Shown piece by piece: positions 14,220-50,782 of a stretch of 64,000 nucleotides of DNA. Both the position numbers and the translations under genes were made by a program. The stretch's first letter is position 1; every line of letters begins with the position of its first letter. The notes under the pieces were generated by a model. The model worked only from the letters and a program-made list of their open reading frames with translations, searched no databases and had not been told where the DNA came from. Source of the stretch: Escherichia coli (GTDB lineage: Bacteria; Pseudomonadota; Gammaproteobacteria; Enterobacterales; Enterobacteriaceae); the NCBI RefSeq assembly GCF_003991155.1, contig NZ_CP031293.1, one strand, 5' to 3'.

Positions 14220-14382
14220 ACTTGCTCCCGACACGCTCAACCCAGATTTAATAAAAATTCAACAAACCATACTGGCATAAACGCATCTGTGGTAAAAGCA
14301 ACCACTACCCAACATGAGATTTGTTCAACATTAACTCATCGGATCAGTTCAGCAACTATTGCATTAGCTAACAATAAAAATG

Positions 14383-14400
14383 AAAATGATTTCCACGATA
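14383..14400 (+). promoter_or_regulatory. Candidate IclR autoregulatory operator in iclR promoter
   Basis: gaaaatgatttccacg resembles the IclR box; located about 20-35 nt upstream of iclR ATG. Confidence 0.4.
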
Positions 14401-14418
14401 CAGAAAAAGGAGACTGTC

Positions 14419-15243
14419 ATGGTCGCACCCATTCCCGCGAAACGCGGCAGAAAACCCGCCGTTGCCACCGCACCAGCGACTGGGCAGGTTCAGTCTTTAA
14501 CGCGTGGCCTGAAATTACTGGAGTGGATTGCCGAATCCAATGGCAGTGTGGCACTCACGGAGCTGGCGCAACAAGCTGGGTTACCCAATTCCACGACCCA
14601 CCGCCTGCTAACCACGATGCAACAGCAGGGTTTCGTGCGTCAGGTTGGCGAACTGGGACACTGGGCAATCGGCGCACATGCCTTTATGGTCGGCAGCAGC
14701 TTTCTCCAGAGCCGTAATTTGTTAGCAATTGTTCACCCTATCCTGCGCAATCTAATGGAAGAGTCTGGCGAAACGGTCAATATGGCGGTGCTTGATCAAA
14801 GCGATCATGAAGCGATTATTATCGACCAGGTACAGTGTACCCACCTGATGCGAATGTCCGCGCCTATCGGCGGTAAATTACCTATGCACGCTTCCGGTGC
14901 GGGTAAAGCCTTTTTAGCCCAACTGAGCGAAGAACAGGTGACGAAGCTGCTGCACCGCAAAGGGTTACATGCCTATACCCACGCAACGCTGGTGTCTCCT
15001 GTGCATTTAAAAGAAGATCTCGCCCAAACGCGCAAACGGGGTTATTCATTTGACGATGAGGAACATGCGCTGGGGCTACGTTGCCTTGCAGCGTGTATTT
15101 TCGATGAGCACCGTGAACCGTTTGCCGCAATTTCTATTTCCGGACCGATTTCACGTATTACCGATGACCGCGTGACCGAGTTTGGCGCGATGGTGATTAA
15201 AGCGGCGAAGGAAGTGACGCTGGCGTACGGTGGAATGCGCTGA
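14419..15243 (+). CDS. iclR: Glyoxylate-bypass repressor IclR
   Basis: ORF 14380-15243; start ATG 14419 (MVAPIPAKRGRKPA) after AAGGAG; 274 aa. Confidence 0.9.
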   Translation: MVAPIPAKRGRKPAVATAPATGQVQSLTRGLKLLEWIAESNGSVALTELAQQAGLPNSTTHRLLTTMQQQGFVRQVGELGHWAIGAHAFMVGSSFLQSRNLLAIVHPILRNLMEESGETVNMAVLDQSDHEAIIIDQVQCTHLMRMSAPIGGKLPMHASGAGKAFLAQLSEEQVTKLLHRKGLHAYTHATLVSPVHLKEDLAQTRKRGYSFDDEEHALGLRCLAACIFDEHREPFAAISISGPISRITDDRVTEFGAMVIKAAKEVTLAYGGMR

Positions 15244-15259
15244 CTTTTTCGCCTCTGAT

Positions 15260-16984
<1,725 letters not shown>

Positions 16985-16989
16985 TTAGC

Positions 16990-17165
16990 GCCCTCATCAG
17001 GAGCAGAGAATTGCCGGATGCGGCGTAAACGCCTTATCCAGCCTACGTTCGGCAACGGTTGTAGGCATGATAAGACGCGCAAGCGTCGCATCAGGCATCG
17101 TGCACCGATTGCCGGATGCGGCGTAAATGCCTTATCCGGCCTACAGTCAGCAACGTTTGTAGGTT
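16990..17165. repeat. BIME/REP cluster between aceA and aceK
   Basis: Two copies of gccggatgcggcgtaaacgccttatccggcctac-type palindromic units. Confidence 0.75.
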
Positions 17166-21457: not shown

Positions 21458-21901
21458 ATGGTTATTAGTATTCGCCGCTCACGGCATGAGGAAGGGGAGG
21501 AACTCGTTGCGATTTGGTGTCGTTCTGTCGATGCCACTCACGATTTTTTATCAGCAGAGTATCGGGCCGAGCTGGAGGAGCTAGTTCGTTCCTTCTTGCC
21601 GGAAGCGCCGTTGTGGGTCGCGGTTAATGAGCGGGATCGGCTGGTTGGGTTTATGTTGTTAAGTGGGCAGCATATGGATGCGCTTTTTGTCGATCCTGAT
21701 GCGCGCGGTTGTGGCGTGGGCCGGATGCTGGTGGAACATGCGCTCTCGATGGCACCGGAACTGACAACCAATGTTAATGAGCAAAATAAGCAGGCTGTTG
21801 GGTTCTATAAGAAGATGGGTTTTAAGGTTACGGGACGCTCTGAGGTGGACGATTTGGGGAAACCGTATCCATTGCTGAATCTGGCATATGTGGGGGAATA
21901 A
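21458..21901 (+). CDS. yjaB: GNAT-family N-acetyltransferase
   Basis: 147 aa; GNAT acetyl-CoA motif region (ARGCGVGRMLVEHA); position between metA and rrnE. Confidence 0.8.
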   Translation: MVISIRRSRHEEGEELVAIWCRSVDATHDFLSAEYRAELEELVRSFLPEAPLWVAVNERDRLVGFMLLSGQHMDALFVDPDARGCGVGRMLVEHALSMAPELTTNVNEQNKQAVGFYKKMGFKVTGRSEVDDLGKPYPLLNLAYVGE

Positions 21902-21979
21902 GCTGCCCCCTATCGTGCTATCGTGCCTGCGTAAGCTGGAGCAGACGCGCCAGCGTCGCAGCCGGCCGTTTTCTGCACC

Positions 21980-22012
21980 AGCGCAAAAAGGCCATCCTGA
22001 CGGATGGCCTTC
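21980..22012 (-). terminator. rrn operon terminator (T1-like)
   Basis: Minus-strand hairpin AGGCCATCCGTCAGGATGGCCT followed by TTTTTGCG just downstream of the 5S gene. Confidence 0.7.
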
Positions 22013-22023
22013 TGCTAAATTTG

Positions 22024-44735: not shown

Positions 44736-45386
44736 ATGGTCCAGAACATCATGTCAGCTTACCTAAAAAAAGCGTTATCGATTCATAGTGATGAATTTCG
44801 CCCATACGGAAACGTAATTTCTGCAATAAATGTAGATTCATTGCTTAAATACCTTAAAGAGGAAATTTCTGTACCTGAGGATCAGGTGGCATATGTCAGA
44901 AGCGATGAGCGCTTAAAGCAATACCCCGCCGTGAGCGACATTCAGCGCCAAATCTACGGTGGAATGCCCGTTCAGGCTGGGTACGTTTGTGGGGTAAATA
45001 CCACCCAGGATGGCTTTGAATATCACCAGGGAAGTGAAGTCATTATCGCCGCCAGCGATTTTTTCCTGTTTTTAGGTAAACGAGAGTTGATGCAGGGTGA
45101 CACGTTTAATGGTGAACGTGCAGAGCCGTTTTTCATTCCGGCAAAATCGGTGATTGAACTTTATAGCACAACGCTACATTACTGCCCTATGAGTATCAAT
45201 GCACAACCTTTTAGTGCAGCGATTATTCTTCTTGATGGAACTAATGAAGATATTGATGGCAAGAATAAACCAACAATATTAAGCAAGCGAAATACCTGGT
45301 TTATCGCCCATGAAAGTTTCACTGAGCATCCTTGCCCATTATTAAAAGGGCCGCATCTTTGCGTGAATGATATTATTCATGGGTGA
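44736..45386 (+). CDS. Cupin-fold protein of unknown function (accessory)
   Basis: 216 aa; cupin-like motifs (G..EYHQGSEV..., ...TTLHYCP...); AT-rich; alternative start ATG 44751 (MSAYLKK); no strong SD. Confidence 0.45.
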   Translation: MVQNIMSAYLKKALSIHSDEFRPYGNVISAINVDSLLKYLKEEISVPEDQVAYVRSDERLKQYPAVSDIQRQIYGGMPVQAGYVCGVNTTQDGFEYHQGSEVIIAASDFFLFLGKRELMQGDTFNGERAEPFFIPAKSVIELYSTTLHYCPMSINAQPFSAAIILLDGTNEDIDGKNKPTILSKRNTWFIAHESFTEHPCPLLKGPHLCVNDIIHG

Positions 45387-45390
45387 AAAT

Positions 45391-45410
45391 GGCGAAGATT
45401 TCTCTTCGCC
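45391..45410. terminator. Bidirectional hairpin terminator between convergent genes
   Basis: GGCGAAGA-tttc-TCTTCGCC perfect stem with T-rich flanks on both strands, between stops at 45386 and 45417. Confidence 0.5.
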
Positions 45411-45416
45411 TGTTCT

Positions 45417-48071
45417 TTACCCGGCAATTACCGCCACGCTGTCTTTTGTTCGCACGCGTGGTGGCATGGTCAGACCGCAGCGATCCCACTCATTCCCCTG
45501 CCATGCACTCGCAAAATAATAATGATTCGCTGCCGATGGGTAGACCACGACCGCCAGTTCATTACGCTTTTTTAGTAAAGACTGTGGCAAGGTGAAACGA
45601 TATTCCGGCCAGCCCTTTTCGGCAATTAACGTATCGTTAAGCCAGATAGCAACGCTTCCCTGCACTTGCGGTAAATAAAGCTCAATATCGTCGGTAATCG
45701 TCTCCAGCGCAAAGCGTAACTGATAATGTCCCGGACCACACCACGTCTCCATCCCCTGCTGCTCCCACCCTTTTGTTACCTCAACGGGTCGGGAAACGTT
45801 ATCAACCAGCAGTTGCCAGTGCTTATCCAGCACCACCTCGTGGCGACTTTCCACTACCTGCAATGAAAAGCAACGGGCCTGCCAGGGCTCGATTTGTAGC
45901 GGATAACTTCCCGTGAGATGCTCTTCCAGCACTGAAACCTCTCCCGTTGCAAGATGCCACTCCGACAACTGCCCACTGAGGCCCGGAAAATGTAGCCAGC
46001 CGTAGAGCGGGGTATCTCCGTCGTTAAATACGCTGACGTAACGCGATGTTTCATCCTGGGTAATTCGCGTCCAGACGGCAGTTTTCCGGGAGGGATAGTC
46101 AACAAAGGGGTGATCGTTTTTCAGCGTGTCGGCTAACGTGCTGCACTGCGGTTGCGCCTCAATCAGTTTTTGCAGCCTTTCGGTGAGAGAACGATCTTCA
46201 CCTTTTTCCTCGCTATATGCCGCAAGCTCGCCGGCGATCAGAAGCTGGCCACCAGCGGCGACAAAGTGCTCCAGTTGGCTCAGCGTGGCGGCTGATTTCA
46301 CCACCTTAACGTCCGCTAACAGAAGCGCAGGGAAATTCATGCCGTTAATGCGCGTTCCATCAGCCTGGAGCAAATTCTCTTCATCAATAAAGAAATATTC
46401 AAATCCCTGAGCGCTGAGTTGTTTTGCCCAATATTCGCCTGACTGCCCTTCGTTGCCATCCACGCCACAGTGCCAGAAAGTCCGTTTGGGATAGAGTACG
46501 CCAACATCAACGTACGGCTCTCCCTGCTCAAGAAATTCGGCAAGGCGACCAGATTCCTGAGCAAACCCAGCGTGGAAGGCGTACCAGGGCTGGAAGTTAA
46601 CGCCCGGCGCAAAATCAAAACGCGGGTTACTTAATACGTCGTCATTTGCCTCGCCATCCGTCAGCCAGAACGCGTGCATCAAAAATTGCCGCGCACCGAG
46701 GAGGTGATGGCGCAATGCCTGCAACCGGATGTCATGCAGTGAAATTTCCCACTGCCCGGCAGCAAAATGTGTGCATGGCTTCACCCGCGCATAATATTGC
46801 TCAACAATGCACCCTTTACGCCCATGAGCGCGCGCCACAGAGTCGCCAACCTTCGCCGCCATCTGCGGCTCGCTATTTCGCGAATCGACAGCCGTAATAT
46901 CCCGCCAGCCATCGAGAGCAAAGTAATCCATAGCAAAATTACACCGGTTATCTTCGGTGATGATTTTACTGGCGAAATTCCAGCTACTAACGTGACCTAA
47001 TACTTCATGACCACTTAGCTGTATTCCCCGCTGGTGCGCCCATTCTGACAACGTACCAAAAAAGGCCTGCATCGCCTGGCTGGAATAACAGGAAAGCAGC
47101 TCACAGCGCCGACGTGCGGTACGACTGCCAATGTCCATAACTAACGACATCAGGTTTTCTGCCAGGCAGTAAGGTGCCTGTTGCAATGCATCAACAAACC
47201 TTTTTTCATACATTAAGGAGGATTTGACCGCGCCAGTATGTTCATTCCATTGCCAGAAACAGGCGTGTGGCTGGTCGAAAAAGAGATACGCCACCGTCTT
47301 ACCAAAATGATCGCCAAAAGCGCGGGCGTAAGGTTCATAGCCGACACGAATAAAATTTTCTGCCGCTTCGGGCATCAGGTAATTAATCATCCGTGAGGTC
47401 AAGCAACGCGCCGCGGCAAAGAGCGTCACTACCGTTTCCGCACCCCAGGGCAGGTCGCTTCCCGTAAAGGTGACCTCAAATTCCTCTGTGGTTGCTTTGG
47501 TGATGCGGGCCAATGAAGAAACATCAACAATTTCATCTGCATTGCACTCCCCTGATGAAGAGGTGGCATACGCTGCGACAATTTCCCATTCATCCCACGC
47601 CGGTTTACCGCCAGCAAAAATCCACTCCATTCCACACTGCTGTAGCGCCTGCGCATCCGCAGAGCGGATCCCGGAAAGGTGACATGTCAGTACATCTGCA
47701 GACCGGCTGGACTGGCTCCAGAAAAGATGGCGCTCACGCAGCTCATCTCTCCCTTCAACGGTCCTTCCCCCGGCGTGCCCGGAAAGCCAGTTGTAATCAT
47801 CGTAGATGCCCATCATCAGCCCAATATTGGCAGCTTTATCAGCCGTGTAGCGACAGGCTGCCAGCCACTCCTCACTGAGATAACTCTCCAGCGGAAGACT
47901 CAGACGTGCGGCTATCTGAAATGAACCATACCCTCCCGCCTGCAGTTGCCTCAGTTGGCTGTCGATCTGCTTTTTGTCCGGAATGGTATGCCAGAACCAG
48001 TAGGTTGCAGGCAGGTGCCATACATCAGGATTTTTAAAGTTTTGGCGTGCCTGTGCTAACGAATCATTCAT
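45417..48071 (-). CDS. Large cytoplasmic hydrolase-like enzyme, probable glycoside hydrolase with C-terminal beta-sandwich; family unassigned (accessory)
   Basis: ORF 45417-48104; preferred start ATG 48071 (MNDSLAQARQNF) preceded by AAGGGGGA and overlapping upstream permease stop; 884 aa; no signal peptide; aromatic-rich N-terminal region. Confidence 0.55.
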   Translation of the reverse strand: MNDSLAQARQNFKNPDVWHLPATYWFWHTIPDKKQIDSQLRQLQAGGYGSFQIAARLSLPLESYLSEEWLAACRYTADKAANIGLMMGIYDDYNWLSGHAGGRTVEGRDELRERHLFWSQSSRSADVLTCHLSGIRSADAQALQQCGMEWIFAGGKPAWDEWEIVAAYATSSSGECNADEIVDVSSLARITKATTEEFEVTFTGSDLPWGAETVVTLFAAARCLTSRMINYLMPEAAENFIRVGYEPYARAFGDHFGKTVAYLFFDQPHACFWQWNEHTGAVKSSLMYEKRFVDALQQAPYCLAENLMSLVMDIGSRTARRRCELLSCYSSQAMQAFFGTLSEWAHQRGIQLSGHEVLGHVSSWNFASKIITEDNRCNFAMDYFALDGWRDITAVDSRNSEPQMAAKVGDSVARAHGRKGCIVEQYYARVKPCTHFAAGQWEISLHDIRLQALRHHLLGARQFLMHAFWLTDGEANDDVLSNPRFDFAPGVNFQPWYAFHAGFAQESGRLAEFLEQGEPYVDVGVLYPKRTFWHCGVDGNEGQSGEYWAKQLSAQGFEYFFIDEENLLQADGTRINGMNFPALLLADVKVVKSAATLSQLEHFVAAGGQLLIAGELAAYSEEKGEDRSLTERLQKLIEAQPQCSTLADTLKNDHPFVDYPSRKTAVWTRITQDETSRYVSVFNDGDTPLYGWLHFPGLSGQLSEWHLATGEVSVLEEHLTGSYPLQIEPWQARCFSLQVVESRHEVVLDKHWQLLVDNVSRPVEVTKGWEQQGMETWCGPGHYQLRFALETITDDIELYLPQVQGSVAIWLNDTLIAEKGWPEYRFTLPQSLLKKRNELAVVVYPSAANHYYFASAWQGNEWDRCGLTMPPRVRTKDSVAVIAG

Positions 48072-49563
48072 GGCTTTCCCCCTTCTTAATCGGCGGAACA
48101 TCACAATGACAAATGTATGTCAAAATGGCATACAGCGCCGCGCCCACCAGCATCGCCACCACTACGCCAATATTTGCTGTCGCAAACACGCTGGTTTTGG
48201 TTTCTGCCGTCAGTAAGAAGCCGACCAGGTGAGCAATCCACGGATCGCCTGAGGTGATGGTTCCCATGCCGATAACCGATGCAACAAACAGCGATAATAA
48301 TGCCGTCCAGCGACCGTTACGCCCGCCAAGCCCCGCGGGCTGCGCCATATCAGTGTTCCAGTGCAAGCGTTTTTGCCGGGCAAAGTCGACAAGCTGGATT
48401 GCGCCCATCGATCCCAATACGACGGATACCGTTGCCAGAAAAGACTGAAAGGTTGCGAGGAACGAGTCAGAAACAAACAATAAGTAGAAGGCACCGAATG
48501 CGATAATGACCGCATTGATAGCAGTGGTGGTTGAACGACTGGCTGGAACGCCCATTGCCAGCAATGCGAGGCCTGAGCTGTAAACACCTGTAATGGCTGC
48601 CGCCAGCAGGGAGATGATGATCACGATTGAAAACGGCACATAGAACCAAAACGGCAGGAACGAGGTTAAGGCCGCAATCGGTTCGGACGCTGCTGCTCCG
48701 CTCAGTTCCGGGTTACTGTCGGCCAGCAGGGCACCTAAAATCAGCAGGATGGAAACCGGAAGCGAAATCCCAAGCGACGTCCAGAAAATCACTTTCCCGG
48801 CAGCGGTTTTGCGCGGCAGGTAACGGGCGAAATCACCGCCATAGTTGAGAAAGCCCAGCCCAACCATCGTCATTGCCATCACCATGCCGCCGATAAACGT
48901 TAAAAATCCGGCATCGGGAGCAGCACCCGCCTGCGACCAGTGAATATGTGGCAGGATCAGGATAATAAAGATGATGCTCATTCCGCCCGTTAACCATGCA
49001 ATATACTTTTCTACCTTCATGATGAGCTGGTGGCCGTAGATGGCAACGGACATAGTCAATACTAAGGTCACCACGAACCAGCCCAACAGGCACCCTAAGG
49101 TAGGGTGACCGTTTTCTGCTGCAAATACGGTTGGCCATAACCGGGCAAAGAGGGCGGCGCCAGTGGTCGAGGACAACGTAATAATGGTGATTTTCCAGCC
49201 CATATTGGAAATATAGGCAAATAAAGTGGGGATCTTATTCCCATGATAACCAAAGGCAAATCGGGTCTGCGTTAAGGTAGGCAGCCCGGTGCGTGGCCCA
49301 CCAACGGCCAGAACCCCCACCAGCGTGCTGGATAAAAAATAGCCCACGACACCGGCAACAATCGCCTGCCAGAGGCTTAACCCCAGTGAGTAAACATAAA
49401 TCCCATAGGTAATACCGAGGATGGATACATTCCATGAAAACCAGATCGGGAAAAGTCCGGCAGGCGAACCATAACGTTCGTTATCACTAACCGGGTTTAC
49501 CCCATTGGTTTCCACCTTCATCGTACCTGAAACATCAGATGGGTTCTGGGCTTGGCTCGTCAT
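48064..49563 (-). CDS. NCS1-type (nucleobase/nucleoside/vitamin cation symporter-like) permease (accessory)
   Basis: ORF 48064-49755; preferred start ATG 49563 (MTSQAQNPSD) preceded by GAGAGGA; 499 aa, about 12 TM; N-terminal P..ER...F..WFS.N motif resembling NCS1 family. Confidence 0.55.
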   Translation of the reverse strand: MTSQAQNPSDVSGTMKVETNGVNPVSDNERYGSPAGLFPIWFSWNVSILGITYGIYVYSLGLSLWQAIVAGVVGYFLSSTLVGVLAVGGPRTGLPTLTQTRFAFGYHGNKIPTLFAYISNMGWKITIITLSSTTGAALFARLWPTVFAAENGHPTLGCLLGWFVVTLVLTMSVAIYGHQLIMKVEKYIAWLTGGMSIIFIILILPHIHWSQAGAAPDAGFLTFIGGMVMAMTMVGLGFLNYGGDFARYLPRKTAAGKVIFWTSLGISLPVSILLILGALLADSNPELSGAAASEPIAALTSFLPFWFYVPFSIVIIISLLAAAITGVYSSGLALLAMGVPASRSTTTAINAVIIAFGAFYLLFVSDSFLATFQSFLATVSVVLGSMGAIQLVDFARQKRLHWNTDMAQPAGLGGRNGRWTALLSLFVASVIGMGTITSGDPWIAHLVGFLLTAETKTSVFATANIGVVVAMLVGAALYAILTYICHCDVPPIKKGESHE

Positions 49564-49564
49564 T

Positions 49565-50782
49565 TTATTTCCTCTCATATTGAGCAAGACGTGATAGTAC
49601 GGCTTCATACTCAGGCATGTTCGATGCGCCTTCCCGCTCGACCGCCAGAGAAGCAAACGCAGAGGCAAATTTTGCTGCACTGAGCAACGGCTGGCCCTGC
49701 GCAATCGCCGCAGCAAACGCACCGTTAAACGCATCCCCCGCACCGGTGGTGTCAATACTTACTGCTTTTAACGCTGGAATATGGGTAAATTGTTCACCGT
49801 CATAAATCAGCGCCCCTTGAGAACCCATCGTAATAATGATGTTTTTTGCCCCCAGGGATTTTATGGTTTGCGCCGCTTCTTTCGCACTCTCGATATCATT
49901 AATCTCGACACCGGACATCAGCGACGCTTCTGTTTCATTCGGTGTCAGATAATCAACATATTGCAGGCATTCTTTTGCCTGGTCAGAATAAGGGGCTGGG
50001 TTAAGGATAGTTTTCACGCCCGACCGATGTGCCATATTTAGTGCCAGCGTGGTTGCTTCAAAGTTATTTTCCAACTGTGTCAAAAATATTTTGGCGTCCG
50101 TCAACTCACCCGCAATACTGGCAACTTCCGCTTCAGTGATATATTGATTGGCGCCAGAATAAATCGCGATCTTGTTTTCACCAGCAGGCTCCGAAACATA
50201 TATTATGGCGCTTCCTGTTTTATGCTCTTCGTCCTGGTAGAGGGTAAAGCTGCGGATATCGGATGAAGAGAGATGATCATGCGCCATCTGGCCGAAATGG
50301 TCGTTGCCAACTTTGCCGACGAAGTGTACCTGGACGGGACATTTGCTGGCTGCCATCGCCTGGTTTGCGCCCTTGCCGCCAGGTCCAATGATGGTATTGC
50401 TGGCAAGAATTGATTCGCCGCTTTTAGGGAAGCGATCAACTTTGGCAATAATATCGACATTAAAAGATCCTAATATACAAACTTTGCTTATCATTATTTT
50501 CCCTTTTTTGTTTGTCATCGAGTTTTTTCGCCAGTTGACCTGATTGAGGAACTTTTCAATAGAGGTACCAACGTTATTAACGGGCTGAGAATGGAAAATC
50601 CGACGCAATATTATTGCTCCGCCGTGACAACGCTCAACACCCCCTTGCTCCGCTAATAAATTTAAATCATTACGGATCGTTTCTTTACTGACAGAGAATA
50701 AGATGGCGAGTTGATTAACCGTAGCCCGCTCATGTTTATTCAAATATGCCAATATTTGACGTTGTCTTTCTTTCCCAAACAT
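49565..50782 (-). CDS. Fusion protein: N-terminal DeoR-type HTH domain + PfkB-family ribokinase-like sugar kinase (accessory)
   Basis: 405 aa; N-terminal RQILAYLNKHERATVNQLAILFSVSKETIRNDL (DeoR HTH); kinase motifs GPGGKGANQA, NPAP, TPNETEA and DTTGAGDAFNGA collinear with RbsK; SD GAGGTGA before ATG 50782. Confidence 0.7.
   Translation of the reverse strand: MFGKERQRQILAYLNKHERATVNQLAILFSVSKETIRNDLNLLAEQGGVERCHGGAIILRRIFHSQPVNNVGTSIEKFLNQVNWRKNSMTNKKGKIMISKVCILGSFNVDIIAKVDRFPKSGESILASNTIIGPGGKGANQAMAASKCPVQVHFVGKVGNDHFGQMAHDHLSSSDIRSFTLYQDEEHKTGSAIIYVSEPAGENKIAIYSGANQYITEAEVASIAGELTDAKIFLTQLENNFEATTLALNMAHRSGVKTILNPAPYSDQAKECLQYVDYLTPNETEASLMSGVEINDIESAKEAAQTIKSLGAKNIIITMGSQGALIYDGEQFTHIPALKAVSIDTTGAGDAFNGAFAAAIAQGQPLLSAAKFASAFASLAVEREGASNMPEYEAVLSRLAQYERK

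Follow-up and report, generated by a model that had tools for sequence, protein, structure and literature searches.

In Escherichia coli K-12 MG1655, the gene arpA (b4017, 728 aa) sits between aceK and iclR (b4016-b4018), an arrangement that the initial annotation of the present DNA had pointed out and that is indeed seen in the MG1655 sequence. There, the 3' ends of arpA and aceK overlap by 32 bp, and the spacing from the arpA start to the iclR stop is 316 bp. The presence or absence of arpA is a standard phylotyping marker, being part of the Clermont quadruplex, and an arpA-negative state was described for phylogroups B2 and F (Clermont 2013) and later for G. The locus presented here is an instance of this state and shows no difference from it.

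The gene that is missing here differs from its surroundings in composition, with a GC content of 0.32-0.40 across the K-12 arpA segment versus 0.52-0.58 in the aceK and iclR flanks. Over nearly its full length, ArpA matches the ShET2 N-terminal region of Pfam (PF07906, E 1.3e-96; 12302-14488 of L001, the K-12 region used for comparison with the window), and its ankyrin repeats are matched by Ank_2. RefSeq names the gene espL4 and lists it as a type III secretion effector, and relatives of ArpA are named ShET2/EspL2 or EspL4 effectors. Judged from these matches, ArpA is a predicted effector-like protein of the ShET2/EspL family with ankyrin repeats. It thereby falls into the family of the ShET2/EspL/OspD3 effectors (PF07906), to which nothing in the window belongs. 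Our literature search found no paper linking ArpA itself to ShET2, EspL or OspD3; a published transcriptome study describes arpA as a gene of unknown function that is not expressed in BL21 and K-12.

The junction of iclR and aceK compared with K-12

The window, by which we mean the whole 64-kb stretch of DNA that was analysed, contains the K-12 neighbourhood metH-iclR-(arpA)-aceKAB-metA-yjaB-(yjaA)-rrnE in reverse orientation. The following features are referred to below:

14419..15243, plus strand: iclR, the glyoxylate-bypass repressor gene; 274 aa plus stop (identity to K-12 IclR, Pfam, annotation of matching genomes)
15221..15242, plus strand: weak terminator-like hairpin at the iclR end, spanning the stop codon and followed by the T-run ACTTTTTCGC; 7 pairs, 3 of them G-C (consensus scan)
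15244..15259, no strand: spacer between the convergent stop codons of iclR and aceK; 16 nt, CTTTTTCGCCTCTGAT; the arpA-free 'empty site' (direct read)
15251..15269, no strand: 19 bp without K-12 counterpart, standing in place of 2,486 bp of K-12; holds the aceK stop and about the last 2 codons (blastn)
[quoted passage not shown]
15639..15658, minus strand: site of the Clermont primer AceK.f, with 2 mismatches (primer scan)
21897..22017, no strand: site without yjaA, from yjaB to the 5S rRNA gene; 121 bp versus 519 bp with yjaA in K-12 (blastn)

Two mechanically called ORFs meet at the junction, 14380..15243 on the plus and 15260..16984 on the minus strand. The TGA of iclR occupies 15241-15243 and the stop of aceK 15260-15262 (TAA on the minus strand), and around position 15240 a direct read gives ...GGAATGCGC TGA CTTTTTCGCCTCTGAT TTA TACGAATCG... 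The two stops, which had been placed about 16 bp apart, are thus separated by a spacer (15244-15259) of exactly 16 nt. This gap is a structural fact of the sequence, to which no chance model applies.

Both neighbours are intact. IclR of the window (14419-15240) shares all 274 aa with K-12 IclR (100% identity), is its orthologue and carries the domains HTH_IclR (PF09339) and IclR_C (PF01614). Relative to the K-12 start, the mechanical iclR ORF is extended by 39 nt at its 5' end (14380-14418) and would encode 287 instead of 274 aa; in matching genomes in RefSeq, iclR has 825 bp, i.e., a product of 274 aa. AceK is present in full length with AceK_regulatory (PF20423, E 1.4e-111) and AceK_kinase (PF06315, E 1.5e-120), and it shares 99.1% identity with K-12 AceK over 573 aa. 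The C-termini differ: the protein of the window has 574 aa and ends in ...RFSVRFV, whereas that of K-12 has 578 aa and ends in ...RFSVRYGEMLF. Further upstream in the operon, the aceA-aceK intergenic region (17010-17163) holds a REP-type element that matches the Rfam family naRNA4 (17064-17141, 81.8 bits) and is flanked by short repeated matches to the K-12 spacer.

In a blastn comparison with K-12, the region aligns in two colinear blocks, with L001 12311 corresponding to window position 15270 and L001 14798 to 15250. Between these breakpoints, L001 12312-14797 (2,486 bp), which comprises arpA and the 316-bp spacer, has no counterpart in the window. On the iclR side, K-12 homology runs 7 nt beyond the iclR stop (GAAAAAG), and on the aceK side the alignment stops about 5 codons before the aceK stop. 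A tblastn search with ArpA gave no match anywhere in the 64-kb window (best E = 0.098). Both results establish that arpA is absent between iclR and aceK, as had been claimed. Compared with the window, K-12 MG1655 thus has the same flanking genes in the same order, but differs by the additional 2,486 bp, the other and longer AceK tail and the overlap of aceK with arpA.

The 3' end of aceK is unusually diverse in E. coli, while the AceK protein remains 99% identical. The 3' half of the gene in the window (15270-16050) shows 92.8% identity to K-12, with one 200-bp bin at 88.5%, a level close to the 91.3% seen with E. albertii. We considered that a foreign aceK 3' end had been imported together with arpA, given the divergence of 7.2% over the last ~790 bp and 11.5% in one 200-bp bin. 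This candidate was dropped, as the identity matrix is a mosaic in which distances are independent of the arpA state, with the arpA-free B2 strain 4/0 lying nearest to K-12.

Nelson et al. (1997, Genetics 147:1509) reportedly dealt with variation in the size of aceK and its flanking DNA, which is probably the polymorphism seen here.

Clermont type and lineage of the window

The initial annotation had taken the missing arpA as a sign of a non-A/B1 lineage and had suggested in-silico Clermont typing, which we carried out with primer sequences checked in Table 1 of PMC4322292. As a control, the pair AceK.f/ArpA1.r gave 400 bp and the yjaA pair 211 bp in K-12, as expected. In the window, the AceK.f site carries the 2 mismatches given above, and ArpA1.r finds no site even with 4 mismatches allowed; consequently, no 400-bp 'arpA' amplicon is expected. 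The ArpA1.r site of K-12 covers the last aceK codons, in the 3' overlap of aceK and arpA. This typing primer sits on the insertion boundary within K-12 aceK, which is one addition to the known scheme. Neither primer for the 211-bp yjaA amplicon has a site in the window, and the yjaA gene is absent according to the blastn comparison with K-12, the site from yjaB to the 5S rRNA gene being accordingly short. Of the complete E. coli genomes in a spread sample, roughly half lack a yjaA annotation at this site.

The remaining two markers were read in the complete genome 2016C-3878, not in the source genome. Window positions 1-25000 and 39001-64000, i.e., 50 kb of 64 kb, were compared and are 100% identical to 2016C-3878 as well as to the complete genomes CREC-544 and AR13438. 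In 2016C-3878, an annotation exists for chuA, which lies outside the window, and its two primers match without any mismatch, giving a product of 288 bp. The 152-bp TspE4.C2 amplicon lies within an alpha/beta-hydrolase gene adjoining fabY. At this usual locus, in the 50 kb around fabY of 2016C-3878, the TspE4.C2 primers have no site, and the hydrolase segment is replaced by a pseudogene and a transposase (L102 5410-7705). The gadX gene of the same genome is split by an IS1 element (L003 37017-38617).

The resulting profile is arpA-, chuA+, yjaA- and TspE4.C2-, with chuA and TspE4.C2 taken from 2016C-3878. Since (- + - -) stands for phylogroup F in the Clermont table, the expectation of a non-A/B1 lineage holds and can be sharpened to phylogroup F. 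Phylogroups A, B1, C, D and E do not agree with a window that lacks arpA between aceK and iclR. For B2, yjaA and TspE4.C2 are both missing, and B2 genomes are 93-96.5% identical at the junction. Phylogroup G, which was proposed for ST117, gives the same quadruplex profile as F and is separated from it by extra markers or whole-genome distance. The lineage of the window is phylogroup F, clone ST457, with F rather than G resting on the literature: CREC-544 and AR13438 belong to ST457, and an ST457 isolate was typed as phylogroup F. ST457 is described as an emerging multidrug-resistant lineage of animals and humans.

Apart from the typing loci, the window contains an accessory segment of ~6 kb (~44751-50782) between thiH and rpoC, which encodes a DUF4867 protein, a hypothetical protein of 884 aa, a purine-cytosine permease family protein and a ribokinase. 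Window positions 39001-64000 are matched contiguously by only 49 of 5,426 complete genomes.

Distribution of the empty junction and direction of the event

To place the junction in the population, we used 5,426 complete E. coli genomes. The contiguous iclR-aceK junction was found in 1,316 of them, while in the remainder the query matches in two separate places. The K-12 arpA segment is present in 4,114 genomes (~76%). Both numbers add up to 5,430 and are thus nearly exact complements of 5,426. The initial annotation had allowed for arpA being located elsewhere in the genome; because of this complementarity, such a location is essentially excluded for genomes with an empty junction.

The junction TGACTTTTTCGCCTCTGATTTATAC is identical in the window, in B2 clone D i2, MS20677 and 4/0, and in 1517k, MS1170 and FHI_NMBU_03; arpA-free E. 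coli strains therefore share one allele type. A comparison of this site with B2 and F genomes had been proposed; the B2, other F/G-like and ST457 genomes examined have the same sequence. The junction of the divergent environmental isolate SC418 has one T fewer. Papers that mention SC418 give no phylogroup for it. That the abutment of aceK and iclR is an artefact of assembly or of a collapsed region can be dismissed for practical purposes. The contiguous junction is common to 1,316 complete genomes, 33 of the complete genomes are 100% identical across 1 kb around it, and several genomes, finished independently of one another, match the two compared 25-kb blocks at 100% identity.

The arpA-positive genomes are heterogeneous themselves. 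Only 2,004 of the 4,114 cover at least 80% of K-12 arpA (L001 12340-14780), and the sampled rows of the others mostly show a match of 75% in two pieces with a span of ~1,829 bp. Such two-piece matches indicate a putative internal deletion of roughly 610 bp, a size that fits the proteins of 524-545 aa annotated as 'ShET2/EspL2 family'. From the split in coverage and the two-piece matches it follows that the aceK-iclR locus has at least three alleles: empty, with full-length arpA, and with what appears to be an internally deleted arpA. In NZ_CP101866.1 (strain LP5-1, from a pigeon), the junction query matches in one place only, with the aceK half and 90.9% identity, which suggests that iclR is either missing or very divergent in this strain.

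Outside E. coli, a scan with AceK yielded 80 loci of other Enterobacteriaceae among the matches listed. They include E. albertii, Salmonella enterica arizonae/diarizonae, Citrobacter, Klebsiella, Enterobacter, Kluyvera, Cedecea and Buttiauxella; E. fergusonii and the cryptic clades I-V are not among them. Each locus was searched for ArpA, IclR and MetH. Downstream of aceK, ArpA is matched in none of the 80 listed loci (0/80), and in 78 of them iclR follows aceK, usually with metH thereafter, the others ending before iclR. The closest counterpart of the window is found in E. albertii NBRC 107761 (L011). Its aceK and iclR are convergent as well, metH comes after iclR, and a 15-nt spacer is colinear with the 16 nt of the window (...TTTAGCGTGCGGTTTGTATAA ATCAGTGGCGAAAAG TTA... 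in E. albertii versus ...TTTAGCGTTCGATTCGTATAA ATCAGAGGCGAAAAAG TCA... in the window). The spacer of E. albertii differs from that of the window by one substitution and by being one base shorter, and the flanks show 87-91% DNA identity. AceK of E. albertii has 574 aa and the same ...RFV-type end as in the window, and several Citrobacter also possess a 574-aa AceK with this type of end.

Taken together, the outgroups without arpA, the colinear junction of E. albertii, the low GC content of arpA and its assignment to the ShET2/EspL family suggest that the tight, arpA-free junction is most likely the ancestral arrangement of the Enterobacteriaceae and that arpA was inserted later. We infer that the direction of the event was most likely gain rather than loss. 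With a probability of roughly four in five, we thus consider the window to be part of an ST457/phylogroup F chromosome with an arpA-free, most likely ancestral allele, while arpA was inserted later in other lineages. The initial annotation had stated that arpA is absent with no remnant. The absence and the lack of a remnant are borne out, and a remnant is not expected because the empty junction most likely represents the state before the insertion. However, the loss implied by this wording is not supported, since the outgroup junctions are arpA-free as well.

The course of events can be sketched as follows. Ancestrally, the aceBAK operon and iclR would have been convergent with stop codons 16 nt apart. 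In a forerunner of the E. coli lineages that now carry arpA, ~2.5 kb of foreign, AT-rich DNA with arpA would then have entered the spacer. This insertion would have replaced the last aceK codons, giving the K-12 AceK its tail of 4 additional residues and creating the 32-bp overlap of aceK and arpA, and it would have brought the new 316-bp spacer between arpA and iclR.

Some observations could also be explained by a clean deletion of arpA in the last ancestor shared by B2, G and F, with the 16-nt spacer being the scar. All arpA-less lineages have one junction in common, as expected from a single event, and arpA occurs in ~76% of the complete E. coli genomes. According to the Clermont table, cryptic clade I, which is sister to E. 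coli sensu stricto, contains some arpA-positive strains, and these complicate the story of a single gain. However, a deletion would need to rebuild both the spacer of E. albertii and the 574-aa AceK tail found in E. albertii and Citrobacter. In addition, arpA is found in 0/80 listed outgroup loci, and the arpA segment lies 15-20 GC points under its flanks, as expected of imported DNA. We thus regard a deletion as very improbable.

Another scenario starts from a phylogroup F lineage that once had arpA and lost it by homologous recombination with an imported arpA-free aceK-iclR allele. The flanks of the junction are mosaic. For the iclR part of the window, identity is 98.6% to K-12 versus 96.2-96.5% to B2; the 3' part of aceK, with its 92.8% to K-12, reaches 95.7-97.6% to B2 and G-like strains. 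Furthermore, the aceK 3' phylogeny is independent of the arpA state, with the B2 strain 4/0 being closer to K-12, and published work reports arpA alleles being transferred horizontally from one phylogroup to another. Nevertheless, every sampled F/G-like genome has the empty junction, and no arpA-positive relative was seen among them. It is simpler to assume that the ancestral state was inherited vertically and that the flanks recombined afterwards, and a replacement of this kind is hence unlikely.

Transcript ends and significance of the junction

The consensus scan detected the weak hairpin at the iclR end listed above and no terminator-like element for aceK at the junction. Folding of the junction was no better than that of shuffled sequences on either strand (z -0.86 and -0.06). 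A structured element in the spacer was consequently rejected as a candidate, leaving only the weak hairpin. Because the 16-nt spacer contains no strong intrinsic terminator, we propose that the ends of the convergent transcripts may be set by the weak iclR hairpin, by Rho, or by attenuation within the aceK gene. In BL21, transcription has been reported to terminate prematurely inside aceK.

If the window represents the state before the insertion, transcripts of aceBAK and iclR might collide or overlap as antisense. One might speculate that the Clermont 'arpA' marker records a gain, that a single import of espL4 rewrote the C-terminus of AceK and parted the convergent units, and that regulation of the glyoxylate shunt might thus differ with the arpA state, i.e., between arpA-free (B2/F/G) and arpA-bearing lineages. 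At this stage, we consider such a regulatory difference rather doubtful.

The arpA-free junction is a known and ordinary polymorphism; the observation is real and was correctly interpreted. Its main value lies in confirming an arpA-negative lineage for the window, namely phylogroup F ST457, and beyond such bookkeeping it is of little importance. A mildly useful point concerns polarity: most likely, the tight junction came first and arpA (espL4) was acquired. Thus, the 'absence' of arpA should not be read as gene loss.
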